Shown here piece after piece: positions 7,244 to 63,300 of a stretch of DNA of 64,000 nt. Below the pieces are notes generated by a model. It was not told the origin of the DNA. It was given only the letters and a program-made list of their open reading frames with translations, and searched no databases. Position 1 is the first letter of the stretch; each line of letters opens with the position of its first letter. The position numbers and the translations under genes are program-made. This DNA comes from Takakia lepidozioides (Eukaryota; Plantae; Bryophyta): positions 27,280,001-27,344,000 of the forward strand of contig CM060732.1 of the NCBI GenBank assembly GCA_030704615.1. Reading direction: 5' to 3'.

Positions 7244-10200
7244 GGACAATGATTAGCTAGAGTAACGAGTTGCCTTGTGGTGGTTTGAGATTCTTAGGGT
7301 CCTGTGGCCTGAGTTTGCTGATAGTGAGGGGTTCGTTTGTCACCGGATCGTGGTAACTTCTGCCTTGATATTCTTGTAGTTGGACCGTCATTTTGGTCGT
7401 TCACTTGTGAGTGCTTGCCGTCCTTGCATCCACTTCTATTGTTATTCTGAGTCATTTTGTTGCTGTTGTTTGTGATACATCTCAAGCAGGTTACCGCAAA
7501 GATCGTTCCGAAGCTTGGATTAGGTACATGCTGCTCCCACAGCTACCTGAGCTCCCCCAAAATAAGGCCGGTCTTGAAAAGGTATTGTTCCCTGAGCAGC
7601 ATCGGAAGCTTCCTGTAACGCCGCAGACCTACGAGTATGTATCAGCAACAATGCCCGAGTTGGCGGCGAATGTTTTAATCGAGACAGATGGTTCAAGACT
7701 TCCTTGTTTAGTGGGAGCCTTCCTATCGCGCAAACTTGAGGAGATAGTCACCGAGATACAAACATCGTTCCTCGTTGCATGCGGCGGGTTGCAAGAGTTC
7801 TTTGGCGTTTTCAAGCAATATGTGGCCGGTTTTAAGGTCACGTTTTCATTCAATTCTACTGACAGGGCGCGGTACAGTTTCTCCCAAACTACTGCACACA
7901 GGACAAGGCCTGATACGATTGGCATAGCCTTTGGATGCACCTTCCTAGTAGGTGAAGACAAGGTTGGCAACTTGCATGCAGCTGAAGGCGATCTTCGTTC
8001 TAAGATGAGGTCGCTTAATCCGATGTTTTATGGGGAATTGAAATTTATTCTAGGCTACATAGCAGCAGGCACTGAATTTCAGTGGGTGTATATCGGCAGG
8101 AGAGGTCCAAAGGAGTTGTATCCAGTGGGTCGACGTCTTAACCTATCAGATATTTCTGATCGCTGCCATTTTTTACTCAGCGTAGGCTATGCCTTCCAGC
8201 TAATGAAGAAAATGCATGACTCTGTTCCGGTAGTCCCAGGTCGCCGTGCCATGTTTTCTATGGAAAAGTCACCGGATGGAAGGAGGAGTATTTACTTTTA
8301 TGATGACAAAGTGGCGAAGCACATTAGAGACTTTTCTAGTTATAGTGCTGACCAGGGGACGGATATTACCGTGATAAAGAGGGCTTATGTTGCTGCGAGA
8401 ACATGTAAGTTTCTGCCGCAGATGGTGGCATTGCCTGTCGAAACTGCTCATGGATCCTACAGAGTTGAGTTTGGTCCTCTTGGATACCAATGCAGATTGG
8501 AGTCTGAAGAGGAATGCAGGTGGATGGCTCAGTGTGTCTGCCGAGCCTTATGTATCCTCCACAGTGCGGGCCTGGTGCACAGGGATATCCGACTCCCAAA
8601 TATTGTGCGCCTTTCAGATACAGATTTCATGCTCATCGACCTCGAATCTGTAGCAGATTTTCCTTTCAAATTGTTTGATGGATTTCAGCCTTTCTCAGCC
8701 TGGTCTCCGGAGATGTGTGAGGGCAACCAGTATACGCCCTTTTCAGACATGTATAGTGTTGGCAAACTCCTGGATGAGTATATCCCCGTTGCAAGGACAG
8801 CACATGCTGAAGATTTTATAAGGAAGCTCACTGACAAACAACTCAGTTCATTACAGGCATTACAACATCCTTGGCTATCAGAGCTCATGCTGTGGGTTTA
8901 TCCTAATTCATCTCTCATTTTGTGACCTTGATGTTTGCTGATGTTTGCTGATGTTTGTGCAAGTTGGTAAAACCTTGTCCTTAGTTGCTACATGTTTGAG
9001 GCTCAGCTCTTAAATCTGCAATTGGATTCTCTTTAACCTATATTCTCTGATTGACCTTTTGTACACTGTTTTATGGCACCTCCAGTTTTTCACATAATTC
9101 TAGATGATCTAATCAAATAGACTAAAAAGAATGAGAGGTAATTGTTGCTGGCCAAATGAGAGGGAATCCCAGAAAACTGGAGCTGTTGGAATTCATTCTG
9201 ATTGCACTGTAATTCTTGGTAAAAGGCGAAAGAGTTGTCTGCTCTGAGCTGGGCATCCCGCTTATTTGGTCTGCGGTTCTTGCTTAAGCTTGTAGCAAAG
9301 TGGTTGTCTAATATGTTGGATGTGTCGTTTGCAGGAGTTTTGACTAGAGGCGGTGGAAGCGACTGTTGATGCACTTGCTGCTGTGCACTTTTTCATGGGG
9401 ACATTCGATGCCCTAATATCTTGGTTGATTTTAGGGGGCATTAAGGTGTTTGTTTGATCGATTTTGGTATTTCACGACCCATCACCAGTACTGAAGATCG
9501 CAAGAGGGAGTGTGTGCAACTGGAAGTCATGTTGGAACATGTGCAGAAACTCGGCGATCTTGCTCATAGGGAGGGCATCCCTGCTGGGCGTGTACACTGA
9601 ATATTGATATGTGCAGAATGTTGCTACGAAGAACTTAGTTCTTGGAGACAAGTGTTGCTGGTTTTATTTTTGGAAACCCATGAACCTCATTCTGCTATCA
9701 TGTACTCTAGGAGAATGAACCAGAGATTCTTGTACCCAGAGTGTATAGAGGTTTTTTTGGTCAAGGTCCAATAGATCTGTACAGTGACAGCACTGTTTTT
9801 CTTAATGTTTAGGAGATGTCTTTGTTGGCCTTACTGGATTTTTTGGACTCTGCAGATAGCCTTGGCCATGACAGCCTCAGTTAGTGACTCCATGATTTCA
9901 AATTCGAGTCAGCAATCCCTTGATGCACTCTTATCTTGTTCTCCGGCACGTCGTGTTGAATGTTGCCATTGAGGCAGGATTTGACCTCCGCAACTGCATA
10001 GGTGGTTTCACCAATTCTGAGAACATCCCTGTTTCTGAGCTTCCCGTGTAATCGTGATTCCATGTTGAACTCACAGTTCACTCTTCAAGCTTAGCTTTCC
10101 ATCAGATAACGCAGATGTGATAAAGACAAAACTAAAACTTCCGTTTCAGTTTTCGCTCGAGTAAACAAGATATTCATTTTTGTTGATGTGTCATTATTAT

Positions 10201-11131: not shown

Positions 11132-11283
11132 AGCTTTTCCTTTTACTCATACATGGATTTCCTTCACCTCAGGACTCTGATATCGCTGACTCTGGTATAT
11201 TCATGTGGACAGACACATTGTACAAATGAGACCACAAATTGTAAACAATGGGCCAATTACAGCATTTCTTGAACACAATGAAA

Positions 11284-13449
11284 TGTAGTGTGAATGCAGG
11301 GGAGAGAACATTACATATGTTTACCATTACGACCTACATCACTATGACGGAGTGCCCGTCATCCCAACTGCAGAAAGGATGTATCCCTTCATGTAGGTCA
11401 TTTCATGAGCGCACTGAACTTATGCTTTGCCAGGAGAAAATGGCTAAGTCATGACGGTACACATTTTCATCCATGCGATGAACGTTTTCATCACTGGTTC
11501 TTGACCTAAAAGATCGCGGGTTGAGAAACACGAAGAGGAAGATGATGGATGGCTCATAGCGGCTGTTGCAAGCAGTGGTGTCGGCAGGGCAGCCTGTGTT
11601 AGGAGGTTGTACTTGCGCGGTGGGATCTTGCTTGGCTTAGGAAGCGGCATTAAGACGCCTCTGCTTGGTATTCTGTGTAGAAAGAAGCGGTGCCGCCTCT
11701 CTCGTAGTGATGATCAATTCCAAGAGATAGAAGCATGTAAGGAAAGCGGCGCACCACCACTGCCGCCAGTGCCTTGAAGATGATAGTTATGGGCAGATAA
11801 ACAAGCAGGGAAAAGGCCAGCTGCTGAAAGCACAGGGAAGAGAGTCTGGGCACAATCAATGGGGGGGAGGTAAAGCATGTGGAGTTCTGGCTGTATGGTA
11901 TCTCAGGTTCTCTGTCATTAAGCTTCTAGCTGCTTTGTGTCTCCTTGTTATAGGACCAGGCCAATTCAAGAGGAAGAATTGCATAGCGTAATCTGGTTGT
12001 CAGGCCACAGGATGGTCCAAGTGAAGAAGGGGAGCCATCATGGCGTCATAAGGTCTGGAATCAAGACAAAGAGAAAGGGTTGAAGTGGCTGCTGACGGGC
12101 GATGGCAAGGTGCCACCTTGACAGGCAGACCCGCCGCTTCACTAGTGGATAAAAACAGATAAGTCGATGAACAGTGGCTTCTTTTTGGGTGGACTTAGAA
12201 ATTGCTTTGGTAGATTTAGGACTGCCATCTTGGCAGAAGAGAAAAGGTAGAGACATGTGACAAGAAAAAGTTTTTGAAATGGGAATGGAGACTTTGGACT
12301 TCAGACCAGAACGTGGAAAGGATGGATGCACCTGATGTTGTGATGACAGTGAGAGAAATAAGTGAAGAGAGAGAGAAAGAGAGAGCCTGTTCGTCACTGA
12401 ATTCAGAATGGTCACTGTTGTCTTCATTCTTGCATTCTGATTCAGTGTCATAAACCTGGACACCATGCTGCCGTGTGTAGTGATAACCTGGAACCAATGT
12501 AGATCTGGCTTGTTTGTTTGGAGAGATCAATGATGGTTAGCTGGAGTTGCAAAAAAACATGGAAAGGATAAGGTGATTTCACTATGGGATCAGGATCTGA
12601 ACAACTGCGTTCCACAGTTGAAGGGAAAAGAGGGATGTTGGGGTATTTGGGTTGAAGTCTGACAAAAGAGATGAGAGCTGTTTGAGCGATGGGTCATTGG
12701 AAAAAGGAAAAGAGAGAGAGACTGATGGATGGGATGGTTGTGTCTTGAGAGACCGAGGATGACTTCAAGGCTGGCCGCACTGGATGCCTAGCAGCGTGTG
12801 CATTCACATTACATGACAGATCTGCTGCTGTGAAATAGTGGGGAACCTGGGGACATAGACAGAGATAGTGAAACAGACAAAAAGGGAAAAGAAAGAGAGA
12901 GAGTGAAAAATGGGATTTGGGTAAGGAGAGAGCTGCAATTCAAAAGGGCTGTTGGGGGGGTTGGTCAATTTGGGGAGATGAGATGAAGAAAACCTGAAAC
13001 CTGAAAGAAACCAGTGCCCCTGCAGACCATGAAGATCTGAGCTGCCTCCTCCTAAATCTGTGTCACCACTACAAAAAGGGGATTTCCGACCTGTCACTGC
13101 TCAAGTGGGCTTCACATAAAGGATCGTGTTTACCGCTGCCATTGGGCTGATTTGCATCACTGAATACATCGCACCAGCATAGCTGGTGCTGTACCTGCTG
13201 ATAGGGGATGTTGTGTAAAAGGTAGAACCAAGAGTGAACAACAAATTGACTCCCCATCCATGTCTTCCCTTCCGCTGCGGCGTGGATGAGGATTGCTTGA
13301 ACTCTGATCACGGAGGAGCTGAGGGAAACCCACAGCCAAGTGACGACAGTTGGACAGATTAGAAAGAACGCTTCTTTCCTCTTGCTCCGCAATCAATGGA
13401 GGGGAGCACAATTAGAATTATACAGAAGGGGATTCACGCCCCTTCTTTT
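11284..13449 (+). mobile_element. LTR (5' LTR-like) of a Gypsy element, lacking the terminal 9 nt
   Basis: Starts TGTAGTGTGAATG; reverse complement of 15261-17426; followed directly by a PBS. Confidence 0.75.
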
Positions 13450-13460
13450 GGTATCAGAGC
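13449..13460 (+). other. Primer-binding site complementary to initiator tRNA-Met
   Basis: TGGTATCAGAGC immediately after the LTR. Confidence 0.75.
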
Positions 13461-13488
13461 TACGTTGTTAAATCTTGATTTCTACTTG

Positions 13489-14013
13489 CTAGGGATCTTG
13501 ACTGGTACTCCAGGTAAACTGGATTGTAGCCGTTGTACCGCCCCTGTTGATGTTCACCACAATGTCGTGCCCTTCAATCATACCACCATCGAATATGGAA
13601 AGCTTCACGTTTACGTCGTCCACACCAATTCGAATGTCCCCATACAATGGAGAAGAGGAGCGCACTCCTTCAGGAGTATACGTCTCTCCGATGGAGTCCA
13701 CCCACGTCCACTGGCAGCAGTTCCACCGCAACAGCATAGCAGTGCGCATTCTTCTGTATGGGTGCCCGTCGTAGCTGGGAAAATTGGAATCAAGGATGCG
13801 CAGGAGCCACGGTCTCCTCAGACCAAGATCGTCACCCCGCTCGAAGGCGTAGTGGCCTGGGATATACTCAAAAGCGGACAATGTTTCCACATTCGAACCA
13901 GTATCTTCTGTGTAAACTGTGTACCAGATAACGATGTCTCCCGATGTGGCCGAATACATTGCATAATCGAAGCCTCCATAAGGGCAGTCGTCCCGGTTCC
14001 GGAAGCACGACAT
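13489..14013 (-). CDS. Unknown 174-aa protein, paralog of 14570-15148
   Basis: Open ORF sharing DYAM, SGDI, FERG, PW, RWNCCQWT, PLYGDIR, GHDIVV and QFTW with the neighbouring ORF. Confidence 0.65.
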   Translation of the reverse strand: MSCFRNRDDCPYGGFDYAMYSATSGDIVIWYTVYTEDTGSNVETLSAFEYIPGHYAFERGDDLGLRRPWLLRILDSNFPSYDGHPYRRMRTAMLLRWNCCQWTWVDSIGETYTPEGVRSSSPLYGDIRIGVDDVNVKLSIFDGGMIEGHDIVVNINRGGTTATIQFTWSTSQDP

Positions 14014-14569
14014 CCTTGCAAAGGAGGACCTGAGGACGTCTTTGATGCCGATGACAATGACCTTGCGGACAACAACGAAGCCCTTTGATTTTCAAAATGA
14101 TGAGAAGCGGAAGAGCAGTGCGGGCTCCAATAATGGAGCATATGGGTCCCACGTACCCACCAGTCATCGTGTAACATGTTCATGGCGCCAGCGGTGGATG
14201 AACCGATACCTCTTTCTCATCCACGGGGTATAGTTTGAAATCTGCAACCGAAGTCCATCCCCCGGATGGAAATTCGGCGCCGCATTTACATCGAAGGGGG
14301 GATAGACTTCGTCGTCTTGAGTGGCTATAGGCCCCCCTGGCACTTACTGCCCATAGTTTGCATGGCACGGAAGGAAACTGAAACGGCTACATTCATGGAG
14401 CAGCCAATCTTCATCCGTGCAGGTTCCTGTAGGGGGGAAATTTAAATGTGCCCTGGAGTGTTAGTGAGGAATTGCAGCGTTTGCTTCAACTTCTTCCAGC
14501 CACCGTGCTGCTGCCTCCTCCATCCGGGAGCTACTGTCATTGAGCGTACTCCGGTAATCTTTTGCAAGG

Positions 14570-15148
14570 ATGTCGTGCCGCCGCAATCCTGCTGACTGCC
14601 GTTATCATGGCCACGATTATGCTATGTTCAAACTTGAATCAGGAGACATCATTGTCTGGCTCTCTGTTTTCACAGATGCTTCTGGAATCAAGCGGGAGTC
14701 TATGCGCGCAATGGAGTATTTGGAGGGCTATTACCGCTTTGAGCGAGGTGAGGGCAAGGGTCAATGCGGTCCGTGGGTCTTGAAAATTGTTGACCTCAAT
14801 ATACTAAACTGGAATGGGATGCCGGACAGATCACGCACGGCCTCACTTTGGCGTTGGAACTGCTGCCAGTGGACCAGGGAGGACGGCACTGGGGAAATCT
14901 ATATTCGTGGAGTTCAATCCGCTCTTCCACTATATGGAGACATTCGGCTGAGTTGCAAAGACGAATTGCACAGGCACATGAGGCCCACAGTCAGCTTGTC
15001 AATGTATAATGGTGGTATCATTGATGGGCATGACATTGTCGTCAGCTCCACCAAGGGCACCAGAACGACCGCATTGCAGTTTACCTGGAGATGCCGATTC
15101 AGTAATGAGCTTGTTTTGAGGGCTATCGAAGTTCCGTCGACTTGGTGA
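14570..15148 (+). CDS. Unknown 192-aa protein, paralog of 13489-14013
   Basis: Open ORF; protein-level conservation despite strong DNA divergence indicates real coding history. Confidence 0.65.
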   Translation: MSCRRNPADCRYHGHDYAMFKLESGDIIVWLSVFTDASGIKRESMRAMEYLEGYYRFERGEGKGQCGPWVLKIVDLNILNWNGMPDRSRTASLWRWNCCQWTREDGTGEIYIRGVQSALPLYGDIRLSCKDELHRHMRPTVSLSMYNGGIIDGHDIVVSSTKGTRTTALQFTWRCRFSNELVLRAIEVPSTW

Positions 15149-15260
15149 CGCCCATGTAGAAGGCGGAAGGGTTTAGATTTGTCTGGAGTTGCTAAATGTT
15201 AGACACCGTGTTCGATCAATAAAACAACCCCTCGTACCTCACTTATGTGTGATGTGTTTC

Positions 15261-17426
15261 TGTAGTGTGAAAAGAAGGGGTGTGAATCCCCTTCTGTATA
15301 ATTCTAATTGTGCTCCCCTCCATTGATTGCGGAGCAAGAGGAAAGAAGCGTTCTTTCTAATCTGTCCAACTGTCGTCACTTGGCTGTGGGTTTCCCTCAG
15401 CTCCTCCGTGATCAGAGTTCAAGCAATCCTCATCCACGCCGCAGCGGAAGGGAAGACATGGATGGGGAGTCAATTTGTTGTTCACTCTTGGTTCTACCTT
15501 TTACACAACATCCCCTATCAGCAGGTACAGCACCAGCTATGCTGGTGCGATGTATTCAGTGATGCAAATCAGCCCAATGGCAGCGGTAAACACGATCCTT
15601 TATGTGAAGCCCACTTGAGCAGTGACAGGTCGGAAATCCCCTTTTTGTAGTGGTGACACAGATTTAGGAGGAGGCAGCTCAGATCTTCATGGTCTGCAGG
15701 GGCACTGGTTTCTTTCAGGTTTCAGGTTTTCTTCATCTCATCTCCCCAAATTGGCCAACCCCCCCAACAGCCCTTTTGAATTGCAGCTCTCTCCTTACCC
15801 AAATCCCATTTTTCACTCTCTCTCTTTCTTTTCCCTTTTTGTCTGTTTCACTATCTCTGTCTATGTCCCCAGGTTCCCCACTATTCACAGCAGCAGATCT
15901 GTCATGTAATGTGAATGCACACGCTGCTAGGCATCCAGTGCGGCCAGCCTTGAAGTCATCCTCGGTCTCTCAAGACACAACCATCCCATCCATCAGTCTC
16001 TCTCTCTTTTCCTTTTTCCAATGACCCATCGCTCAAACAGCTCTCATCTCTTTTGTCAGACTTCAACCCAAATACCCCAACATCCCTCTTTTCCCTTCAA
16101 CTGTGGAACGCAGTTGTTCAGATCCTGATCCCATAGTGAAATCACCTTATCCTTTCCATGTTTTTTGCAACTCCAGCTAACCATCATTGATCTCTCCAAA
16201 CAAACAAGCCAGATCTACATTGGTTCCAGGTTATCACTACACACGGCAGCATGGTGTCCAGGTTTATGACACTGAATCAGAATGCAAGAATGAAAGACAA
16301 CAGTGACCATTCTGAATTCAGTGACGAACAGGCTCTCTCTTTCTCTCTCTCTTCACTTATTTCTCACTGTCATCACAACATCAGGTGCATCCATCTTTCC
16401 ACGTTCTGGTCTGAAGTCCAGAGTCTCCATTCCCATTTCAAAAACTTTTTCTTGTCACATGTCTCTACCTTTTCTCTTCTGCCAAGATGGCAGTCCTAAA
16501 TCTACCAAAGCAATTTCTAAGTCCACCCCAAAAGAAGCCTCTGTTCATCGACTTATCTGTTTTTATCCACTAGTGAGGCGGCGGGTCTGCCTGTCAAGGT
16601 GGCACCTTGCCATCGCCCGTCAGCAGCCACTTCAACCCTTTCTCTTTGTCTTGATTCCAGACTTATGACGCCATGATGGCTCCCCTTCTTCACTTGGACC
16701 ATCCTGTGGCCTGACAACCAGATTACGCTATGCAATTCTTCCTCTCGAATTGGCCTGGTCCTATAACAAGGAGACACAAGCAGCTAGAAGCTTAATGACA
16801 GAGAACCTGAGATACCATACAGCCAGAACTCCACATGCTTTTACCTCCCCCCATTGATTGTGCCAGACTCTCTCCCTGTGCTTTCAGCAGCTGGCCTTTT
16901 CCTTGCTTGCTCATCTGCCCATAACTATCATCTTCAAGGCACTGGCGGCAGTGGTGGTGCGCCGCTTTCCTTACATGCTTCTATCTCTTGGAATTGATCA
17001 TCACTACGAGAGAGGCGGCACCGCTTCTTTCTACACAGAATACCAAGCAGAGGCGTCTTAATGCCGCTTCCTAAGCCAAGCAAGATCCCACCGCGCAGGT
17101 ACAACCTCCTAACACAGGCGCCCTGCCGACACCACTGCTTGCAACAGCCGCTACGAGCCATCCGTATCTCCTTCCTCTTCGTTTTCTCAACCCGCGATCT
17201 TTTAGGTCCAGAACCAGTGATGAAAACGTTCATCGCATGGATGAAAATGTGTACCGTCATGACTTAGCCATTTTCTCCTGGCAAAGCATAAGTTCAGTGC
17301 GCTCATGAAATTACCTACATGAAGGGATACATCCTTCTGCAGTTGGGATGACGGGCACTCCGTCATAGTGATGTAGGTCGTAATGGTAAACATATGTAAT
17401 GTTCTCTCCCCTGCATTCACACTACA
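15261..17426 (-). mobile_element. Complete LTR (3' LTR) of a minus-strand Gypsy element
   Basis: TG...CA termini with inverted ends TGTAGTGTGAA / TTCACACTACA; lies downstream of a minus-strand integrase, with a purine tract (AAAAAGGAG on minus) nearby. Confidence 0.8.
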
Positions 17427-17429
17427 TAT

Positions 17430-22008: not shown

Positions 22009-23517
22009 GCTTCCGATCGAAATTACAAACGCAATGTTGAACGACCTGAAATTGGAATTTGAGCTGATTAGGGTTTAACCAACCGGTGCAGTGACGGACA
22101 ACGTTTTCGAAAGGCACCAAGAGAGAAAGCACACAAAATTCACTTGGAAAGAGCACAACGCAAGGAAGGGCTACAGAGAAAAGGCGTAAAGCTGCAACCA
22201 CTACAAGTCCGAAGACTTACTGAATGAACGCATCCAGATCATATGACAGTGCAGCGCAAACCTCGCCTCACCTGACACAAACACTAAGAGAAACTTTGGC
22301 GAGCAATCAGAGATCGGAGACCAGAAAAGAGCGATCTGAGAGCGAGACAGCTTGAGGGACTATGCGAGCACATATGTTAGCCTCCCTCCCGAGGGTAGTA
22401 ATAACCCTCAATCCGCACCATTGGATCATTACGAATCTGACGGCATGAAGTTACAAATGAATTCGTCCATTCTGTGCACCAATTTGTCCACTAACGAAAT
22501 ATATATATGATACAGGGAACCAAATTATACTATTCCTCTCATTTTTTAATAATTGGGACTTGAATGCACATATGGGCCTGCGAGTACGGCCTATGGGGTG
22601 AGCTCAAGAACCCACCCCCTTTCACCGGGTCTAGATTCTGAATTTTTTCTAAGTCCTAGTTCTTTAACGACGGTGGACCTTCTAGCGGACTGGCCAAACC
22701 CTCAACAGACTGACTCCAACTAGCGAGCGGACTGACCAGCAAACTGGCGATTGGCGAGCGGACCGACCGACCAACATTGGACTCCAACTGGCGAGCCCCT
22801 AACTCCAACCTTCAGACCCTCCTCAAACAAAATATATATTTATAATTGACACACATTACCGCTACAATGTCAGCTGCCAAGATTTGAACAGCAGACCTCA
22901 CGTTCGTCACAAATGCTCTTTACCATCACACTAACCGCCGCTTTCTCCAAACCCTTGAAATAATTAATTACTAGGGTTTCGCGTTGCTCCGCACTACTAG
23001 CGACGATTTCTGAGAAGGACGTCCGGACGGATGGGCCATACTCGAGGATCATGAGAGAGAGTATGGATCATGTAGCCTGCCAACATGTCAGTCACGTAGT
23101 TCCGATTGGTGGGAGAGGGGAGAGGGGAGGGGGGTTGTTGTGCACGTTTTAAACTCCTTTTCGAGTGTTGCATGTTAGATCTGGTTCTAAGAGTGTTCTT
23201 TAGTGTGTCTATTCTCTTACTTAGAGATAGGTTACTATTCTCATGTCCTTACAGTGAATCAGTTTCATCACACACACTTGCCTCTTGCATATCTTTGCAT
23301 TTGCACTTTAGAACGTTGCAACATCACTCCCACTCTGTTCTATTCTAGTTTTATGTGTCTCAGGATCGATTCTTTTAGTTTTGATTCACAGGCTAGATAT
23401 TTCTACAAGCTTTCTAAGGTGTCCATAACCCGGTGCATTCGTAGCAAAGAGGTTCGAACTCTGTTGCACTGCTACATGTATTTGTTTCCGCTCTTTTGTA
23501 AACCCTAAACATTTGTT

Positions 23518-24200
23518 ATGATGTTAGCTGCAACTTCTGAACCTTCTTCTTCCAAGCGTCCTAGGATAGAGATGAATAGTGATGGTGCTCCTGCAGAAGA
23601 TCGACCGTCTTGTTTGTCTCCAAGGGGTTATTCTCCTACTCCAAGGCCGCACGTTGGGATTTTTTTCAACCAGAATGATCATTCTCCAGACTTTGTGGAT
23701 GCTATTCGCAAGTTGTTGGACAACTCTTTGGCTCAGTACAAGAAGGATTTCAAGAGACTTCAACGTCTCAAGGCAACTTTCGACAAACTCAGATCTCATA
23801 AAGTTGCCGGTGAAATTCCTCGGAAAGAGGTGCAGAAACAACTTTCCAACTCAGGAAAAAAAATTTCTCTCTCTCCTACTCGCCCTAAGCAACATCAACG
23901 AGCGCGTTCTTCCTCTCCTAACCACAAGAGGCAACAACAGCGTGGCCGCTCACCTGCTCGACGAGTCTTCAAGACTCAACCTACCGGTCGAGGCACTTCA
24001 GCAAAAGCCAAGGTAACTTCCTCCAATGCAAACTCTTCAAAGCAGCAGGGAAATGACCAACATCGAAATGGGACTGCTCGCACCCGTTTCGCTGCATCGC
24101 GTTCACCTTCTCCGAGCAAATCTGCCCTACGTTCTCAGACCCGTTCTGAAGATAACCATTTGATAGATTCTATATCTTTGTTCTGTCGGATAGGCAACTT
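23518..24200 (+). pseudogene. PLE N-terminal basic, Ser/Arg-rich region
   Basis: ORF-track 254-aa ORF (23518-24282) with RSSSP/RSPSP-rich low complexity, directly upstream of and overlapping the RT; the junction to the RT looks deleted or frameshifted. Confidence 0.5.
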
Positions 24201-24209
24201 CCTGGCGAC

Positions 24210-25178
24210 GTGCTTTTGTTCACCTTTGATGTGGAGTCATTGTATCCTAGCATTCATACTGGGGACGGGCTTCGACAATTGAAGGAGATGATTGCCGGCA
24301 AGTTCAAGTCGCTTCGGTTTGAAAGATTCGTTGTGAGTCTTTCTCGCATGATGTTGGAGAATAACTATCTTCAATTTGGCTCAAGCTATTGGCATCAGAT
24401 CCGAGGCACAACAATGGGTAGCAACTTTGCTATTGTTTATGCTTGTCTCTTTCTTTGCAGCTTAGAAAGAGAGTTGGCTGGTGCTGGAGGAGGTATGTGG
24501 CCTCTATACTACAAGAGATACATCGATGATGGATTTGGAATTTGGGCAAGATCTCGAGCAAGTTTGGAGGCTTAGCTCGATGGATACAACTCTCTTCGTC
24601 CCACAATTTGGAATCAAAGGGTAATCTCTGAGTCTACGGTTGACATTCTTGATATTCAGTTCTTCAAGAGAGTTGATTTTGTCAACCATGGGATTTTATT
24701 TTCGAGATGTCATCAAAAGACACTCAACACATACCAGTATTTGCCATGGACCTCGTGTCATCCACGACACCAAAAACGAGCATTCATCATTGGCGAATTA
24801 CGACGTTACACTTTGAGGGAGAGCACACGGGCAGGTTTTTCCGAGATCAGGCAACTGTTCTATGAGCGACTGCATGCTCGAGGCTATCGAAAGTCTTTTA
24901 TCTTGGAATGTTTTATGCTTTGTGACTATACACAACGTGCTACACTGTTGACTTCGGAGTCCACTCGTAAGTTGACGGGCAAGCGGGCCCCCTTGGTTCT
25001 GAAACTTGAGCATTCGCGTTATACTCGAGCTCTAAGCTTTGAGGGAGTCCTAAACCCTAAACTTCATGTGGGCTTTTTGAAAGATCCGCAGTTAGCGTCA
25101 TTTGACAGACCTATGGTATGTTGGAAGAGGGCACGGAACTTGCGTTCCTATCTAGTTCGTGCTATGTTACAAATCTAG
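24210..25178 (+). pseudogene. Penelope-type reverse transcriptase (degraded)
   Basis: FTFDVESLYPSI, QIRGTTMGSNFA, YKRYIDDGFGIW, thumb SCHPRHQKRAFIIGELRR and RARNLRSYLVRA; stop at 24573-24575 plus a frameshift; no GIY-YIG follows. Confidence 0.85.
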
Positions 25179-25483
25179 AGGCTAGTTGTATTTGAAACAT
25201 GCAGTTAGCTTCTAGTTTGGATGATTATCCATTTTGGAGAGAACATTATGATGTTTTTCATCTAGAATTTCATGCGTTGGATATTTCTCTCATGCCGAGA
25301 AAACTTTGGATGTTTTTTCATCTAAGTTTTCATGTGTTGGACGATCTCTCCAGCCGAGACAATTTTGGATGTTTTCCATCCATTAGATATTTTCTTTCCC
25401 CCCCCCCCCCCCCCGAGACAAATTCACTTTCCGTAGTATATAAGCTGGGTGAGGGGTGCACATTGTATCTCTTTTCCTTCTAT

Positions 25484-25527
25484 TTCCCACTGATGAGCTC
25501 ACGTGCTGAGCGAAACTAGTTTGGGGA
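25484..25527 (+). ncRNA. Minimal type I hammerhead ribozyme
   Basis: Stem I TTCCCA/TGGGGA; core CTGATGA (25490-25496); stem II GCTCA-cgtgc-TGAGC; GAAA; palindromic stem III region AAACTAGTTT; predicted cleavage after GUU at 25521. Confidence 0.8.
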
Positions 25528-26140
25528 TTATAGAGATTCGCTTTGCTGCATCTGTGTTCTTGTCTCTTTGTCTCATTGGCGTTGTTGTTGTTGTTGAGTT
25601 TTAGATTTGATCTTCTGCATAGTTCATTGCATTCATTTGCTTTGTGTCTATTGTAGTGCATGTTTTAAACTCATTTTCGAGTGTTGCATGTTAGATCTCA
25701 TTCTAAGACTGTTCTTTAGTGTGTCTATTCTCTTGCATAGAGATAGGTTACTATTCTCCTGTCCTTACAATGAATTAGTTTCATCACACACACTTGTCTC
25801 TTGTATATCTTTGCATTTGCACTTTAGAACGTTTCAACATCACTCCCACTCAGTTCTATTCTAGTTTTCTGTGTCTTAGGATCGATTCTTTTAGTGTTGA
25901 TTCACAGGCTAGATATTTCTACAAGTTTTTTAAGGTGTCCATAACTGGCCCCCCCTAAAAACTTGTTTGCACTTTGTTTCTATTGCACCCGGTGCATTCG
26001 CGGTTCGAACTTTGTTGCACTACTACATGTATTTGTTTCCACTCTTTCATAGACTTGGAAGTTTGGCTCCATGGATACAATTCTCGTAGTCCCACAATTC
26101 AGATTCAAAGGGTAATCTCTAAGTCCGAATTTCTGAGTCG

Positions 26141-26358
26141 GAGGCAGTCCGCATCAGCATTTCCTACCTGTCTGGCCCCAAGCCCCACTGTTTCTTTTTC
26201 AAGAACTCGTTATACCTGCATTGCTGCATAATTGACCTCACAATGTCATCCGTTGTGGCAGTGAGGATGTCCACCAGATGCGCCGCAGAGGAGGCACGCT
26301 AGGAAGAATGCAATGATTTGGCCATGTTTGCTGTCGGTGTCGGAGTCGAGACACATTT
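26141..26358 (-). pseudogene. Captured fragment of the Mutator-type transposase seen at 61331-61560
   Basis: Reverse complement closely matches AAATGTGTCTCGACTCCGACACCGAC...GCTGATGCGGACTGCCTC. Confidence 0.85.
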
Positions 26359-28541
26359 GTAAACCCTAAACCCCACTCTTTTGTAAACCCTAAACCTGTA
26401 ACCTTAAACCCTAAACCCAAAGACTTGGGGATTATAGAGATTCGCTTTGTTGCATCTTGTGTTCTTGTCTCTTTGTCTCATTGGCGTTGTTGTTGTTGTT
26501 GAGTTTTAGATTTGATCTTCTGCATAGTTCATTGCATTCATTTGCTTTGTGTCTATTGTAGTGAATGTTTTAAACTCCTTTTCGAGTGTTGCATGTTAGA
26601 TCTCCTTCTAAGACTGTTCTTTAGTGTATTTATTCTCTTACTTAGAGATAGGTTACTATTTTCCTGTCCTTGCAGTGAATTAGTTTCATCCCACACATTT
26701 GCCTCTTGCATATCTTTGCATTCGCACTTTAGAACATTGCAACATCACTCCCACTCAGTTCTATTCTAGTTTTCTGTGTCTCATGATTGATTCTTTTAGT
26801 TTTGATTCGCACGCTAGATATTTCTATAAGTTTTCTAAGGTGTCCATAACTGGCCCCCCCTAAAAACTTGTTTGCACTTTGTTATTAATGCACACCCGGT
26901 GCATTCGCGGTTCGAACTCTGTTGCACTGTTACATGTATTTGTTTCCATTCTTTTGTAAACCCTAAACCCTAAACTCCCTTTCGAGTAGCACATGTGAGA
27001 TCTGCATCTAAGTTGTTCCTAGTGTGTCCATTCTCTTGCAAAACAGAGATAGGGTTCTATTCTCCTGTGCATCCAGTGAAATAGTTCTCATACGCACATT
27101 TGCCTCTTGCATAGGTTTGCAGTTGCATTTTAGGACACCTCGCATATTTCTATTCTACTTTCATGTCTCTTAGGATCTTTCCTTTCAGGTTTGATTCACA
27201 GGATCTGAAATTTTTCCAGGGGTGCATAATTGGCCCCCCTAAAACTTGTTTGCCCGGATTGTGTTTATCTTGCACCCGGTGCATCCGCGTTGTAGTGCTA
27301 CACTTGTTTGACACTTTATGTAAACCCTAAACCTAAACCCTAAACTTCGTTATGGGTGTGTGATTAATATTCAACTTTCATAACTCTTCATAACTCTTCA
27401 TAACTACAATTTTAAATTAATAAGTGAAGTCGATATAGATGATTATTATGAATGCTAGTAAATAATGGAGTTGGTGAGTGTCATCATTAATGTAACCAAC
27501 ACTACTGATCAGTAATACAATTTTGTTTGATTTGTAATAAACAATGACAACCTATATATTTTGTCGGTTTCTGTATATTTGGTCAACACAGTTTGTAGTA
27601 ATGAATGTTACATGTGGTTGGTGTGATTTTAGTTTTCATAAGTATTTACAACCACTACTTATTATATTATAACTTAGAAGTTTGATTTATATGTTTATTT
27701 AATAGTATTATCTTAAAGAGTATATATAGGTATGTTAACTTCACAACGAACTCACAACTTCTATAGTCTTTCACCGTCTTCCATTTTGTTGCTTTCAATC
27801 TGTTATAGTCTTTCAGAGTGTTTCACAATCTTTTAGAATTTTCCAGTCTCTCATGATCTTGCTTATCCTCTTTCAACATTTCTGTTCATCTTTCGTAGTT
27901 TTTGACAAGGTCGCCTATAATCAGACTCTCTTAATTGATTACAGCAGAAAGAAAAAATAGATTGAAATACTTAGAATCAGATGTTACATGTTTAAGAGTA
28001 GTGTGTAGTTACAAATGAATAACTTTTTGTATAAAAGTTAAATTTTGAATAACTTTTGATTATTTTTAATAGTAAATGTGTCGATTTAATTCATAAAGTA
28101 ATATAACTTTTAATACAACTTTTAATAATTCTAATTTAGAGGATGACTAAAAAGATGAAAACCAAAAATAACTAAAAATATTATTAAAATATAAAAGATA
28201 AACAATTAAATCTTTTATTGCTATATGCAACTCGTTCTTCCACTTAAGTCTAGAAGTGGTCTCTCCTGCTGCTCTCATTCTCTCGTTCACTGATCTCACT
28301 CACTCTCATTCCTTCTTATCTTTCAACTCTTTGGCTCCCACCAAGATGGGATAGGAGGATGTATCTCAGATGGGAGGCCCTAATGGGAGGGGGCGGCAAA
28401 CTTTTTTTTGTGTAGCAGACGCAAAAAACACAAAAGGGATGAGTTGAGGTTGTTGGTACAAGACGGGAATTGGATTCGAGATCACAGAATTGCGCACGGA
28501 CAAGAGAGGATACCACTTCCTTATTTGCCTTGTTGTTTGGA

Positions 28542-33877: not shown

Positions 33878-36800
33878 GGACAATGATTAGCTAGAGTAAC
33901 GAGTTGCCTTGTGGTGGTTTGAGATTCTCAGGGTCCTGTGGCCTGAGTTTGCTGATAGTGAGGGGTTCGTTTGTCACCGGATCATGGTAACTTCTGCCTT
34001 GATATTCTGGTAGTTGACTGTCATTTTGGTCGTTCACTTGTGAGTGCTTGCCGTCCTTGCATCCACTTCTATTGTTATTCTGAGTCATTTTGTTGCTGTT
34101 GTTTGTGATACATCTCAAGCAGGTTATCGCAAAGATCGTTCCGAAGCTTGGATCAGGCACATGCTGCTCCCACAGCTACCTGAGCTCCCCCAAAATAAGG
34201 CCGGTCTTGAAAAGGTATTGTTCCCTGAGCAGCATCGGAAGCTTCCTGTAACGCCGCAGACCTATGAGTATGTATCAGCAACAATGCCCGAGTTGGCGGC
34301 GAATGTTTTAATCGAGACAGATGGTTCAAGACTTCCTTGTTTAGTGTGAGCCTTCCTATCGCGCCAACTTGAGGAGATAGTCACCGAGATACAAACATCG
34401 TTCCTCGTTGCATGCGGCGGCTTGCAAGAGTTCTTTGGCGTTTTCAAGCAATATGTGGCCGGTTTTAAGGTCACGTTTTCATTCAATTCTACTGACAGGG
34501 CGCGGTACAGTTTCTCCCAAACTACTGCACACAGGACAAGGCCTGATACGATTGGCATAGCCTTTGGATGCACCTTCCTAGTAGGTGAAGACAAGGTTGG
34601 CAACTTGCATGCAGCTGAAGGCGATCTTCGTTCTAAGATGAGGTCGCTTAATCCGATGTTTTATGGGGAATTGAAATTTATTCTAGGCTACATAGCAGCA
34701 GGCACTGAATTTCAGTGGGTGTATATCGGCAGGAGAGGTCCAAAGGAGTTGTATCCAGTGGGTCGACGTCTTAACCTATCAGATATTTCTGATCGCTGCC
34801 ATTTTTTACTCGGCGTAGGCTATGCCTTCCAGCTAATGAAGAAAATGCATGACTCTGTTCCGGTAGTCCCAGGTCGCCGTGCCATGTTTTCTATGGAAAA
34901 GTCACCGGATGGAAGGAGGAGTATTTACTTTTATGATGACAAAGTGGCGAAGCACATTAGAGACTTTTCTAGTTATAGTGCTGACCAGGGGACGGATATT
35001 ACCGTGATAAAGAGGGCTTATGTTGCTGCGAGAACATGTAAGTTTCTGCCGCAGATGGTGGCATTGCCTGTCGAAACTGCTCATGGATCCTACAGAGTTG
35101 AGTTTGGTCCTCTTGGATACCAATGCAGATTGGAGTCTGAAGAGGAATGCAGGTGGATGGCTCAGTGTGTCTGCCGAGCCTTATGTATCCTCCACAGTGC
35201 GGGCCTGGTGCACAGGGATATCCGACTCCCAAATATTGTGCGCCTTTCAGATACAGATTTCATGCTCATCGACCTCGAATCTGTAGCAGATTTTCCTTTC
35301 AAATTGTTTGATGGATTTCAGCCTTTCTCAGCCTGGTCTCCGGAGATGTGTGAGGGCAACCAGTATACGCCCTTTTCAGACATGTATAGTGTTGGCAAAC
35401 TCCTGGATGAGTATATCCCCGTTGCAAGGACAGCACATGCTGAAGACTTTATAAGGAAGCTCACTGACAAACAACTCAGTTCATTACAGGCATTACAACA
35501 TCCTTGGCTATCAGAGCTCATGCTGTGGGTTTATCCTAATTCATCTCTCATTTTGTGACCTTGATGTTTGCTGATGTTTGCTGATGTTTGTGCAAGTTGG
35601 TAAAACCTTGTCCTTAGTTGCTACATGTTTGAGGCTCAGCTCTTAAATCTGCAATTGGATTCTCTTTAACCTATATTCTCTGATTGACCTTTTGTACACT
35701 GTTTAATGGCACCTCCAGTTTTTCACATAATTCTAGATGATCTAATCAAATAGACTAAAAAGAATGAGAGGTAATTGTTGCTGGCCAAATGAGAGGGAAT
35801 CCCAGAAAACTGGAGCTGTTGGAATTCATTCTGATTGCACTGTAATTCTTGGTAAAAGGCGAAAGAGTTGTCTGCTCTGAGCTGGGCATCCCGCTTATTT
35901 GGTCTGCGGTTCTTGCTTAAGCTTGTAGCAAAGTGGTTGTCTAATATGTTGGATGTGTCGTTTGCAGGAGTTTTGACTCGAGGCGGTGGAAGCGACTGTT
36001 GATGCACTTGCTGCTGTGCACTTTTTCATGGGGACATTCGATGCCCTAATATCTTGGTTGATTTTAGGGGGCATTAAGGTGTTTGTTTGATCGATTTTGG
36101 TATTTCACGACCCATCACCAGTACTGAAGATCGCAAGAGGGAGTGTGTGCAACTGGAAGTCATGTTGGAACATGTGCAGAAACTCGGCGATCTTGCTCAT
36201 AGGGAGGGCATCCCTGCTGGGCGTGTACACTGAATATTGATATGTGCAGAATGTTGCTACGAAGAACTTAGTTCTTGGAGACAAGTGTTGCTGGTTTTAT
36301 TTTTGGAAACCCATGAACCTCATTCTGCTATCATGTACTCTAGGAGAATGAACCAGAGATTCTTGTACCCAGAGTGTATAGAGGTTTTTTTGGTCAAGGT
36401 CCAATAGATCTGTACAGTGACAGCACTGTTTTTCTTAATGTTTAGGAGATGTCTTTGTTGGCCTTACTGGATTTTTTGGACTCTGCAGATAGCCTTGGCC
36501 ATGACAGCCTCAGTTAGTGACTCCATGATTTCAAATTCGAGTCAGCAATCCCTTGATGCACTCTTATCTTGTTCTCCGGCACGTCGTGTTGAATGTTGCC
36601 ATTGAGGCAGGATTTGACCTCCGCAACTGCATAGGTGGTTTCACCAATTCTGAGAACATCCCTGTTTCTGAGCTTCCCGTGTAATCGTGATTCCATGTTG
36701 AACTCACAGTTCACTCTTCAAGCTTAGCTTTCCATCAGATAACGCAGATGTGATAAAGACAACTAAAACTTCCGTTTCAGTTTTCGCTCGAGTAAACAAG

Positions 36801-38084: not shown

Positions 38085-38420
38085 TTTAGGGTTTAGGGTT
38101 CAGGGTTCACAGAAAGTGTCAAAACAAATGTAGCAGTACAACGTGGATGCACCGGGTGCAAAATAAACACAATCCGGGCAAACAAGTTTTTAGGGAGGCC
38201 TGTTATGCACCCCTGGAAAAATTTCAGATCCTGTGAATCAAACCTAAAAAGAGAGATCCCGAGAGACAGGAAACTAGAATAGAAGTATGTGAGGTGTCCT
38301 GAAATGCAATTGCAAACCTATGCAATAGGCAAAAGTGCGTATGAGAACTATTTCACTGGATGCACAGGAGAATATAACCCTATCTCTATTTTGTAAGAGA
38401 ATGGACACACTAGGAACAAC
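38085..38420 (-). repeat. Inverted copy of the PLE-associated repeat (27010-27345) with a TTTAGGG tract
   Basis: GGATGCACCGGGTGCAA...AATCCGGGCAAACAAGTTTT is the reverse complement of 27240-27290; TTTTAGGGTTTAGGGTT at about 38085. Confidence 0.8.
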
Positions 38421-58369: not shown

Positions 58370-60766
58370 TTCAATTTGATAAAAGAGAGAGGCATGAAAC
58401 GATGGTGTTTTGAGCATGGCAAACAGGCCCTGTGTGCCCAATTTCTCATCAGAAAACAGGCCCTGTGTGCCCAATTTCTCATCAGAAAATTGTGGGGGCC
58501 AAAAACACCGTGCGTTGCCGCACAATGTTTCAGCTTCCAAATTCAGGTGTTTTGAACATGATATTTGGCCCCATGTGGCACATTTCCACAAAAAAAAACA
58601 GGCAGAGAGGGGGCCACAAGAGGGCACAAACAGTGTGCATTGCCGCACACTCTTCGTGCTTCCAACTATGGGAGTTTTGAGCATGCATACTGGCCCTGTT
58701 AGGCCCAATTTCACATAGAAAAACAAGCAGAGAGGGGGCTCAAAACAGTGTGTGTTGCCGCACACTGTTTGAGCTTCCAATAAGGGTTGGATTCAACCTG
58801 CCAAAGTGGCCCCAGGAGACCGATTTTCACATCAAAAGCAATCACAGAAGGAAGCTCAAACAGTGTGCGTTGCCGCACACTATTTGACCTTGCAATAAGG
58901 TGTGATTTTAATATGGCATAATGGCCATGAGTGGCCAATTTGAAATAAAAGAAAAGGCAGTGAAGGGGGCTCAAACAGTGTGCGTCGGCGCACACTGTTT
59001 GAGCTTCCATTTTGGAGTCGAATCAACCTGCCAGACTGGCCGTAGGTGCACAATTTCCATATCCATAAACAAGCAAATCAGGGGGCTCAAACCATGTGCG
59101 TTGATGCACATTGTTTGGGCTGCTAAGTAAGTGTGAATTCAACCTGACAGAGATGACATTTGTGGTCGATTCTAAAATGCCTGCTGCCAGGTAAGTGCAT
59201 TGAAGCTCAAAGAGATGCCCTATGTGGCCGATTTTCAGATAAAAAAAACAATGACATGGTGGGCTGGAACAGTGTGCATTGACGCGCACTGTTTGATTAG
59301 GTATGTCTGCATTGAACCTCAAATACATGCCCTACGTGGCTGATTTTCACATGAAAAAAACAATGACAAGTTGGGCTCAAACAGTGTGCGTTGACGCACA
59401 CTGTTTGAGCTGCCACTTAAGTGTGCATTGAAGCTCAAAGAGATGCCCTACGTGGCCGGGTTTCAGATTAAAAAAACAATGACATGGTGGGCTCAAACAG
59501 TGTGCGTTGACGCACACTTCTGGAGCTGCCACGTAAGTGTGCATTGAAGCTCAAAGATATGCCCTACGTGGCCGATTTTCAGATTTAAAAAAATGACATG
59601 GTGGGCTCAAACAGTGTGCGTTGACGCACACTTCTGGAGCTGCCGGGTAAGTGTGCATTGAAGCTCAAAGATATGCCCTACGTGGCCGATTTTCAGAAAA
59701 ATAAAAAATAAAAAATGACATAATGGGTTGGAACAGTGTGCGTTGACGCACACTGCTGGAGCTGCCACGTAAGTGTGCATTGAAGCTCAAAAATATGCCC
59801 TACGTGGCCGATTTTCAGATTAAAAAAACAATGACATGGTGGGCTCAAACAGTGTGCGTTGACGCACACTGCTGGAGCTGCCACGTAAGTGTGCATTGAA
59901 GCTCAAAGATATGCCCTACGTGGCCGATTTTCAAAAAAATAAAAAATAAAAAATGACATAATGGGTTGGAACAGTGTGCGTTGACGCACACTGCTGGAGC
60001 TGCCACGTAAGTGTGCATTGAAGCTCAAAAATATGCCCTACGTGGCCGATTTTCAGATTAAAAAAACAATGACATGGTGGGCTCAAACAGTGTGCGTTGA
60101 CGCACACTGCTGGAGCTGCCACGTAAGTGTGCATTGAAGCTCAAAGATATGCCCTACGTGGCCGATTTTCAGATTAAAAAAACAATGACATGGTGGGCTC
60201 AAATAGTGTGCGTTGACGCACACTGCTGGAGTTGCCACGTAAGTGTGCATTGAAGCTCAAGGATATGCCCTACGTGGCCGATTTTCAGATTAAGAAAACA
60301 ATGACATGGTGGGCTGGAACAGTGTGCATTGACGCACACTACTAGAGCTGCCACGTAAGTGTGCATTGAAGCTCAAAGATATGCCCTACGTGGCCGATTT
60401 TCAGATTAAAAAAACAATGACATGGTGGGCTCAAACAGTGTGCGTTGACGCACATTGCTGGAGCTGCCACGTAAGTGTGCATTGAAGCTCAAAGATATGC
60501 CCTACGTGGTCGATTTTCAAAAAAAATAAAAATAAAAATAAAAAAAACACTGACATGGTGGGCTGGAACAGTGTGCGTTGACGCACACTGTTTGAGCTGC
60601 CAGGTAAGTCTGCATTGAACCTCAAATACATGCCGTATGTGGCCGATTTTCACATGAAAAAAACAATGACAAGTTGGGCTGAAACAGTGTGCATTGACGC
60701 ACACTGTTTGAGCTGCCACGTAAGTGTGCATTGAAGCTCAAAGAGATGCCCTATGTGGCCGTTTTT

Positions 60767-60823
<57 letters not shown>

Positions 60824-61100
60824 AATGACATGGTGGGCTGGAACAGTGTGCGTTGACGCACACTGTTTGAGCTCCCAGGTAAGTCTGCATTGAACCTCAA
60901 ATACATGCCCTATGTGGCCGATTTTCACATGAAAAAAACAATGACAAGTTGGGCTCAAACAGTGTGCGTTGACGCACACTGTTTGAGTTGCCACGTAAGT
61001 GTGCATTGAAGCTCAAAGAGATGCCCTATGTGGCCGATTTTCAGATAAAAAAAACAACGACATGGTGGGCTGGAACAGTGTGCGTTGACGCACACTGTTT
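58370..61100. repeat. Tandem array of about 22 units (~115-125 bp), each containing a 36-bp palindrome
   Basis: GCTCAAACAGTGTGCGT-TG-ACGCACACTGTTTGAGC (perfect copy at 59375-59410); units are homogeneous at 59.3-61.1 kb and degenerate toward 58.4 kb. Confidence 0.95.
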
Positions 61101-62751
61101 GGATGATGCAGAGACACAGTTTGCATGTATACGGGCTTGGTGGACATCGTCAGGTGCTGTAAGGAAATCAGACGAGGGAGCAATGGTCAGTTGGCTAGCA
61201 TGGTGGCATTATTGTTTCCTCCAGTTCGGCGACTATATGCGGGAGGTGAGTTGCACGAATTCGCGTCCCGTTGAATATTATTCTTGGCTATATTTGTAAC
61301 TTGTTTGTAACCTCAACATGTGCTTGTGCAGGAAATGTGTCTCGACTCCGACACCGACATGCCCACGACAAACATGGCCGAATCAGTGCACTCTTCCTGG
61401 CGTGCCTTCTCTGCGGCGCATCTGGTAGACATCGTCACTGCCACAACGGAGGACATTGTGAGGTCAATAATGCAGCAATGCAGGTACAACGAGTTCTTGA
61501 AAGGGAAACAGTGGGGCTTGGGGCCGGACAGGCAGGAAATGCTGATGCGGACTGCCTCTAGATCGAAGAATCCTCGGAAGTGGGCGGCGGCCTTGCGAGA
61601 GGGCCTTCGGGACACGCCATTGCTGCGAAAAGGCCAAACATTTGGAAGGAGATGTTCATACCCGTCCAGTGAGACGAAGACTTGACGAGGCACCTGGCGG
61701 AGAAGAGGATTCATGGCGAGCTGACAAGAATATTCGCACGCTCCCTCGTGGTCCGGTGATGTTGCCCGAGGAGGTCTCGTCGAGCACCGCAAGTCCTGCA
61801 CGTTCAAGATCGCCATCTCCTTTGAGCACAGGGCGCATGCCCCGACAACATAACGAGCCATCTGTAGTAAAGCAATACAACATTCCCATTGTGGAGACAA
61901 GAGTGTCGGAGTCACAGTGGAGAATTGCGAGGACATTGCCGGCATTTCGAGGGAAGTGCTGCGCCATCCGGGTGGATACGAGAGCACGCTGTGGTGAGAT
62001 GATTCGGAGGAACCCACACGGTGCTGTACCTGCACCTTGTTTCAGCGGCAAATTTTTGACTCCCACATTTGCTCACGCCACAACGCAGACATTTTGGTTC
62101 TGTAGGCACGACATAATGACCTGTGTATTTGGCAAGCCCAAGTACGGGATTCAGGGAATGCCGGAGCCTCCGGGCGTCTGGCCTGTTGCACCGGGTTGCA
62201 GCCTCTCTCAGAATGAGGCAGATGCTCTATCTGCAACAGGATTTTGAATGGTGCAACGCACAGACATCCCGGCCCACGCATTTCCGGTTCCTTAGACCCA
62301 GCCATTGCAGACTGCTCGGTCCAGTAGAGACGGATTGGACAATTCTACACATCCCACAATGCGATTCGGAGGAGTGAAGAGACGACACCCTCCCAACAAG
62401 TTGAATGAGACTCGGATTGCCAATGCTCTTGGGATAGCTTGCACTATTCAGAGCTCCGTGGACGTACCCCCACCCGGCCTTGGGCGTGTATATCGGATGG
62501 CAATGGCCGGCTCGGCTGTACGCGACGATGTATACACAATTACGATTGGAGTGGAGCCGACTTGCAATTGTACGGACTTCTCGTTGATGGAAGCAAAGAA
62601 GGGTTCGAAGTATTATCCGTGCAAGCATCTGTATTACATTTACCTGAAGAGGTTGAGGATGAACGTGACTATTGATGACGTTATTCATGCACCGGCGTTG
62701 AGCGTGAACGAGCTGCACAAACTCCTCCTTAGGGATTCCAGAAATCATTGA
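61101..62751 (+). pseudogene. 5'-truncated Mutator/MULE-type transposase with C-terminal SWIM zinc finger
   Basis: TTNMAESVH (third catalytic E motif), intron 61246-61331, SWIM CNCTDF...PCKHLYY; frameshifts near 61640 and 62250-62300. Confidence 0.65.
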
Positions 62752-62907
62752 TGGGGCAAAGGGAATCCTCCATATGGATATTTTCAATTGCATTTTGCTG
62801 TATCAGACTTTTTTTTGCAGTGTAATGAAATGCACCCCAAAACTCCTGGAATGAGGCAATATTCCATTCAAACTGAGATCCAACAGAAGCAGTTGTGGGG
62901 CCATTTC

Positions 62908-63300
62908 TGGAAAAATGGCGCCGAATTTCTCTTTTTGGGGCCGAAAACTGGCAAAGTCCCAACATGCACTGGTACCTGTGTCTGGGAAAATGGCGCCGAA
63001 TTTCTCTTTTTTGGGCCGAAAACTGGCTAAGTCCCAACATGCACTAGTACCGTGTCTGGAAAAATGGCGCCGAATTTCTCTTTTTTGGGCCGAAAATTGG
63101 CTAAGTCCCAACATGCACTGGTACAGTGTCTGGAAAAATGGCGCCGAATTTCCCTATTTTGCGCCGAAAACTGCCTAAGTCCGAACATGCACTGGAAAAA
63201 TGGCGCCGAATTACCTGTCATGAGGGGACCTATAGCCGCGGAATTCGGCACCATTTTTCGCCAGAGAGACCTATTACCGCGAAATTCGGCGCCATATTTG
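62908..63300. repeat. ~72-bp tandem repeats (GAAAAATGGCGCCGAATT core) followed by inverted cores
   Basis: Five direct copies at 62908-63212; inverted GAATTCGGCACCATTTTT at 63241 and AAATTCGGCGCCATATTT at 63282. Confidence 0.85.

Follow-up and report, generated by a model that had tools for sequence, protein, structure and literature searches.

A putative type I hammerhead, identified by its core and stem pattern, lies at 25478–25535 (+) in the pLTR of a broken, endonuclease-less Penelope-like element (PLE), and a solo pLTR further downstream in the same cluster, termed copy B, starts at the predicted cleavage site without a hammerhead core. What is seen directly is the motif and its conservation, where the copies begin and end, and that the copy B junction is real. 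The explanation favoured here, though by no means firmly, is that slow, dimer-dependent cleavage occasionally sets the template's 5' end, copy B being the product of reverse transcriptase (RT) run-off at the new 5' end of a cut RNA. At most, a minority of copies would end at the cut by this route. The features of the cluster in the window, i.e., the whole 64-kb stretch of DNA that was analysed, are as follows; pLTR positions with a sign are counted from the predicted cut.

23135–23511 (+): copy C, upstream pLTR, 5'-truncated at +130, whose terminal telomere-type repeat runs into the first ORF
23518–24282 (+): basic ORF fragment after the telomere-type repeat, likely the 5' part of ORF1
24156–25178 (+): Penelope-like RT, C-terminal half, with an in-frame stop at 24573–24575 and no GIY-YIG after the thumb
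25437–25443 (+): TATA box of a predicted promoter, 53 nt upstream of the hammerhead core, recognised by the TATA spacing in related hammerheads
25478–25535 (+): predicted type I hammerhead with a 2-bp helix III and a palindromic loop, recognised by core/stem pattern and covariation
25478–25489 with 25522–25535 (+): hammerhead stem I, bulged, 12 bp
25490–25496 (+): hammerhead core CTGATGA
25497–25511 (+): hammerhead stem II, GCTCA/TGAGC, 5 bp
25512–25515 (+): hammerhead GAAA
25515–25520 (+): hammerhead helix III, A-C/G-T pairs around TA
25521/25522 (+): predicted cleavage site, after GUU, with T25521 as H17 in standard hammerhead numbering
25522–26047 (+): pLTR body of copy A, from which the telomere-type repeat at the end is missing
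26048–26356 (+): patchwork of a 7-nt filler, an RT-region fragment, a further filler and a foreign fragment
26357–26418 (+): telomere-like tract with short copies of the pLTR 3' end (26373–26397 matches from +518)
26419–26424 (+): 6-nt filler before copy B
26425–26970 (+): copy B, a solo pLTR that starts at the predicted cut site and extends to the telomere-type repeat, with no core and no ORF behind it
26971–27345 (+): copy D, pLTR of another subfamily (71–76% identity), 5'-truncated at +145, with telomere-type repeats at its end
38085–38420 (−): copy E, a separate D-type pLTR, 5'-truncated near +189

The array thus reads truncated pLTR C, telomere-type repeat, ORF fragments, 3' region, TATA box, hammerhead, body A, patchwork, solo B and divergent D. 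The cluster (23135–27345) is interstitial: 23 kb and 36 kb of other sequence flank it in the window, which is not a location at a chromosome end. Each pLTR has the telomere-type repeat as its 3' end, directly ahead of the first ATG and ~530 nt downstream of the cut; in 17 of the 50 relatives a tract is present, at 428–1377 nt downstream. The pLTR-to-ORF join of the copy C type recurs as a loose end at 26054 in two of four runs.

The RT of the window lacks the first ~289 residues of full-length homologues. A homologue search gave 73 matches among longer proteins, the best with 45–50% identity over 95–97% of the query; the best homologues are 602–636 aa long and 36–50% identical, and the named close ones come from Cryptomeria and Ginkgo. 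In a FastTree tree of 70 of the 74 rows, from which four long proteins were left out, the window RT clusters with proteins of ~600–660 aa, including two gymnosperm ones, with support 100. The RT frame stops 22 residues past the thumb motif, as in close homologues, and the Pfam GIY-YIG domain was absent from all four close homologues scanned and present in a distant control (P0047). The DKN motif occurs in all 16 full-length homologues aligned; its region is missing from the window copy. C-rich runs lie on the sense strand in most related loci, and reverse-complement telomeric repeats are located at the 3' ends of the units here. For the ORF fragment 23518–24282, no Pfam family and no match in 76 related loci were found. 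PLE-type RT matches and tree placement bear out the identity of the element as Penelope-like, as the preliminary description had it. Because the RT homologues lack GIY-YIG and the repeats are of the TTTAGGG type, the element is assigned, on these sequence features, to the plant-lineage, endonuclease-deficient PLEs.

The segment 25478–25535 contains all elements that define a type I hammerhead (CUGAnGA ... GAAA ... UH; helices I, II and III; open at helix I). A strict hammerhead descriptor matched once in the window and not at all in 300 simulated 64-kb windows. Rfam, including its hammerhead models, gave no match at E≤1 across the whole window, and the folding energy of the motif is ordinary (z −0.85), giving it no support; the minimum-energy fold of the monomer pairs the core inactively. 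The core had been described as complete, which holds, and stem III as palindromic, which holds for part of the palindrome: only ACTAGT of the 10-nt palindrome is usable as helix III, the outer bases being core residues. In the minimal hammerheads of metazoan PLEs, helix III and loop 3 are absent, helix II is long and an unpaired base precedes stem II. The present motif keeps helix III (2 bp and a 2-nt loop), has a helix II of 5 bp and carries no extra base before stem II, and hence the term "minimal" does not apply to it. Standard hammerhead numbering places the predicted cut after 25521 (triplet GUU), the same site as proposed earlier. GUU is a slowly cleaved triplet. It is listed among the cleavable hammerhead triplets in the text of PMC3138052.

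Dimer folding predicts an active dimer at −36.2 kcal/mol, a dimer in which the cleavage base is paired at −38.0 kcal/mol and a non-catalytic co-fold at −42.6 kcal/mol. The active dimer is thus less stable than both alternatives, which counts against the favoured explanation. U17 is able to pair with A14 in the dimer model, the inactive register being 1.8 kcal/mol more stable than the active one. This pairing suggests that attenuation may be built into the hammerhead.

Conservation was assessed in 76 related loci from a scan of metagenome contigs. The hammerhead motif gave 50 matches in 49 of these 76 loci, 69 of which belong to one accession series and are not independent; all matches lie on the RT sense strand and all carry a palindromic loop. 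Two extra loose matches in one locus (L076) had neither palindrome nor stem I and were discarded. Among 24 distinct cores, including that of the window, the loop region is CTAG in 14, TGCA in three, CGCG in three, CATG in two and CCGG in two, all of which are palindromes, and position 17 is U in 22. A TATA box is found upstream of 43 of the 50 related hammerheads, at 36–39 nt in 35 and at 51–53 nt in eight, and transcription of the window element would start near 25467. The core is unchanged in all 23 aligned rows. In an alignment of 23 hand-picked variants, pairing holds in 93.7% of cells, stem II being out of register in three rows, and two-sided change is seen in nine of 11 pairs, a result matched by none of 500 shuffles, which leave relatedness uncontrolled. 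Helix III, counted as in the dimer, is 100% paired in the 23 variants, with an inner pair of UA in 13, GC in six, AU in two and CG in two. Lacking a loop, this inner pair needs two molecules in order to form, and its covariation speaks for the dimer. The proposed dimer design via a palindromic helix III is thus strongly backed by covariation in the 23 variants, and there is strong evidence that selection maintains this predicted dimer-type ribozyme right behind the promoter. For the plant endonuclease-deficient clade, covariation in the palindromes and conservation of the TATA spacing add something modest but solid.

Several further observations concern the motif in the same data. A second hammerhead family is present in the same runs and, within the core region shown, differs only at N7 and loop II. 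Loose ends in runs X1–X4 carry additional hammerhead variants, pointing to further families with the motif in the sample. In these four runs, summed contig depth over the core (window 25490–25523) is several times the flank depth. Exact-pattern scans of metagenome contigs and of viral contigs gave no matches.

Copy B aligns to copy A from 26425, which corresponds to 25521, with 493 of 526 pLTR-body bases identical (93.7%). The alignment agrees with the earlier claim that this copy begins at 26425, within 1 nt of the predicted cut, and lacks the core. It had also been called the next copy. Copy B does lie downstream in the same cluster, but it is not adjacent to copy A, from which 377 nt of patchwork (26048–26424) separate it. 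In that patchwork, the RT-region fragment (26055–26125) is 85% identical to 24564–24634 and the foreign fragment (26141–26358) is 90% identical to 61333–61558, inverted; no special source was found in the window for the motif of the 7-nt filler. Likewise, a telomeric tract does end a few bases before copy B, with the 6-nt filler between them, but the tract consists partly of tiny copies of the pLTR's own 3' end. Telomere-like tracts hold TG-led pieces in addition to a short copy of the pLTR 3' end (26357–26418; joint of 26047 to 25637 in run X2), which suggests repeated short re-priming by the element's own RT, beyond telomerase alone.

The copy B junction is found in contigs of X1, X2 and X4 (three of three runs of one sample) and was not seen in the low-depth run X5; being present in contigs of three of the four runs, it is not an assembly error. 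Its exact position is less sharp. The 8-mer AGACTTGG (filler AGAC and the following TTGG) occurs both at this junction and at the junction at 26051, so that TTGG may be derived from the filler template and the start of copy B proper may lie anywhere from 0 to +4. Contigs that cross the cut with an intact core have a depth of 1467–2338, versus 75–126 for the copy B junction, which is ~1.4–2.1 times that of a neighbouring unique junction, depth being a rough guide and no copy number. No second junction at the cut was found among the contigs listed (17 of 27), and contigs drop rare variants.

The 5' ends of pLTR copies in this genome lie at 0/+1 (copy B), +116 (a read joint), +130 (C), +145 (D), +189 (E) and +518 (a mini-copy), one of six being at the cut. 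Under uniform truncation, the chance that at least one of six ends falls within 1 nt of the cut (a 3-nt window) is 3.3%, rising to 6.5% with a 6-nt window, in which the blurring of the copy B start by filler is allowed for. In related loci, none of 13 candidate 5' junctions (14 rows, one locus appearing twice) is at the cut; these junctions lie at −10, +323, +486, +496, +509 and +2287 to +3841. In the tabulation of copy 5' ends against the cut, which had been put forward as one check, 18 of 19 placed ends (six from this genome and 13 from relatives) are away from the cut. Because the depth of core-crossing contigs is far above that of the copy B junction and the other ends are off the cut, most copies come from RNA with an intact core. 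The idea that copy B is a genomic record of self-cleavage stays plausible, with one junction at the cut; the wider idea that cleavage defines the template's 5' end in general does not stand.

Other patterns in these ends were noted. Four of the six pLTR 5' ends lie between +116 and +189 (window 23135, 26971 and 38418, and read joint 25637), and a splice-acceptor-like TGTAG is located at 25652–25656. The end at −10 (L022, at 996) lies inside the hammerhead and is preceded by a palindrome copy that is partly inverted. Contig starts at +5, +12 and +16 (L067, L040 and L066; three of 16 placed starts, far above the uniform expectation) were rejected as evidence, as two of the three are placed one overlap-length ahead of a branch in the assembly. 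The rise of contig depth across the site (e.g., from 1098 to 1467–1490 in X4) was not used either, as small sequence variants coincide with the contig breaks in X1 and depth does not measure copy number.

In the favoured explanation, transcription, driven by a promoter at the preceding unit's 3' end, would begin ~55 nt upstream of the cut, as the conserved TATA box indicates. Two hammerheads would pair via the ACUAGU palindrome and cleave after GUU, a step to which the covariation points. A G-rich DNA end would then prime on the telomere-type repeat ~530 nt downstream of the cut, in line with the ends of the copies and with the published model; after cleavage, this priming repeat lies within the 3' product, hundreds of bases from its end, and cleavage therefore cannot create the priming end. 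The RT would mostly stop early or continue across a core that is uncut or re-ligated; a minority of events would end in run-off at the cut end and yield a copy without the core, as in B. The addition of filler bases and of short, re-primed pLTR-end copies would follow.

The strongest competitor, which is nevertheless rather unlikely, is that the hammerhead is real and that the start of copy B is a random 5' truncation that landed on the site by chance. The 18 placed ends that lie elsewhere are what this reading predicts, the filler blurs the boundary of copy B, and the probability of 3–6.5% for the six ends of this genome applies to a case picked after the fact. It has against it that an end at 0/+1 is, under uniform truncation, ~15–30 times less likely to arise than not to arise.

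A still less probable reading is that the uncut ribozyme fold, or its palindrome at the DNA level, stalls synthesis or triggers a template jump, so that ends gather near the motif without cleavage. The near-full-length relative L022, whose 5' end lies in the core behind the partly inverted palindrome copy, is in keeping with this, as is the neighbouring patchwork, which shows repeated template jumps. A stalled RT would, however, be expected to leave ends near +14, where stem I has its 3' foot, or scattered across the fold, not at 0/+1; the end of copy B is neither at the probable transcription start site nor at the stem I foot, which argues against a structure-stalled RT. Finally, it is very improbable that the upstream part of copy B was lost at a later time, when a DNA break was repaired with telomere-like filler, making the junction silent on the RNA template: the cluster is interstitial and its fillers resemble templated insertions of the repair type, but the element-derived pieces all have the same orientation and the telomere-type repeat forms the end of copies B, C and D, as from successive RNA priming.

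Run-off at a cut RNA end, the favoured explanation, also has a bearing on which copies arise. If both hammerheads of a tandem transcript were cut, the linear unit RNA would yield only a solo pLTR like copy B, and copies with ORFs would need circular or uncut RNA; copy B fits this scheme, as one case. A broader proposal, offered tentatively and itself doubtful, is that in plant endonuclease-less PLEs an attenuated (NUU), promoter-proximal, dimer-only hammerhead acts as a switch. A tandem pair would cut out a unit RNA whose sole priming site lies ~0.5–1.3 kb from its 5' end; the linear form would give nothing but solo pLTRs starting at the cut (B), the circular or uncut form would give ORF copies with an intact core (C plus A), and copy B would be a fossil of the linear intermediate.

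Hammerheads in such elements have already been published, and the motif described here is of a known kind. Type I hammerheads were reported in the pLTRs of endonuclease-deficient, telomere-associated PLEs, including that of the plant Selaginella moellendorffii, and dimer cleavage and a cut-and-circularise role were proposed in the text of that report (Cervera and De la Pena, 2014; PMC4209133); hammerheads in PLE pLTRs are also described in the text of PMC6765202. The Selaginella element shares with the present one the type I topology, the pLTR location, a short palindromic helix III, the proposed dimer cleavage and a plant host; unlike here, genomic 5' ends are not mapped to the cut in the text of the report (PMC4209133). 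The conserved TATA spacing, the five palindromic loops and U17 in 22 of 24 cores are features found here, the Selaginella motif being compared by its published text alone.

Endonuclease-deficient elements attach to G-rich overhangs via telomeric stretches, according to the texts of PMC8557442, PMC6431247 and PMC13159263. As described in the same texts, the endonuclease-deficient Coprina and Athena PLEs and the Terminons have, like the element here, an RT without GIY-YIG, reverse-complement telomeric repeats at 3' ends and head-to-tail, 5'-truncated chains, together with the DKN motif, seen here in homologues. In Terminons as described there, the telomeric stretch is immediately downstream of the hammerhead; here it is ~530 nt downstream, and thus the 3' end is not of the Terminon type. 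Also unlike in those descriptions, the hammerhead here is located behind a TATA box at the start of a transcription unit, and the cluster is interstitial.

In R2, an HDV-like ribozyme at the 5' end sets the 5' junctions, which vary where cleavage falls at the end of the element (Eickbush et al., 2013; PMC3774820); this parallels the logic of the favoured explanation. Both ribozyme and element belong to other classes, and the link was shown there by assay and many junctions, compared with one junction here. In PAc, a Poseidon element of Anolis, insertion of ribozyme mutants was normal in vitro and RNA-seq gave no reads ending at the cut, as given in the text of the report (Frangieh et al., 2024; PMC11167929), and these results count against the favoured explanation. 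Like the present element, PAc has a pLTR hammerhead upstream of an internal start of reverse transcription, and most of its copies come from unprocessed RNA; unlike the present element, it has an endonuclease (PMC11167929, main text). In these texts, the job of PLE hammerheads is variously called unclear (PMC8557442), hypothetical (PMC4209133) and dispensable in vitro (PMC11167929). No PLE copy 5' ends mapped to a hammerhead cut were found in the titles, abstracts and text passages surveyed, which does not establish absence from print. If the 5' ends of many copies piled up at the cut, which any good assembly would allow to be counted, this would be in vivo evidence for a ribozyme acting on the template; one junction is insufficient to settle this.

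Other features of the window lie outside the cluster. C5 DNA methylases have been captured by charophyte and dinoflagellate retrotransposons, and a C5 cytosine DNA methylase domain (PF00145, E 5.6e-12) is found here at 46199–47215 (−), inside an LTR-retrotransposon-like pol region that also includes 43064–45967 (−) and whose integrase has a PHD finger at its end. Near-identical copies of an ORF for a protein kinase (Pfam Pkinase) occur twice, at 7411–8925 and 34044–35558 (+), in a duplicated block ~26.6 kb apart. A long inverted repeat (11283–17427) has arms that are 98–100% complementary and a 1.8-kb centre. Tandem arrays at 58497–61170 and 62901–63198 consist of units of 115–116 nt and 74 nt.
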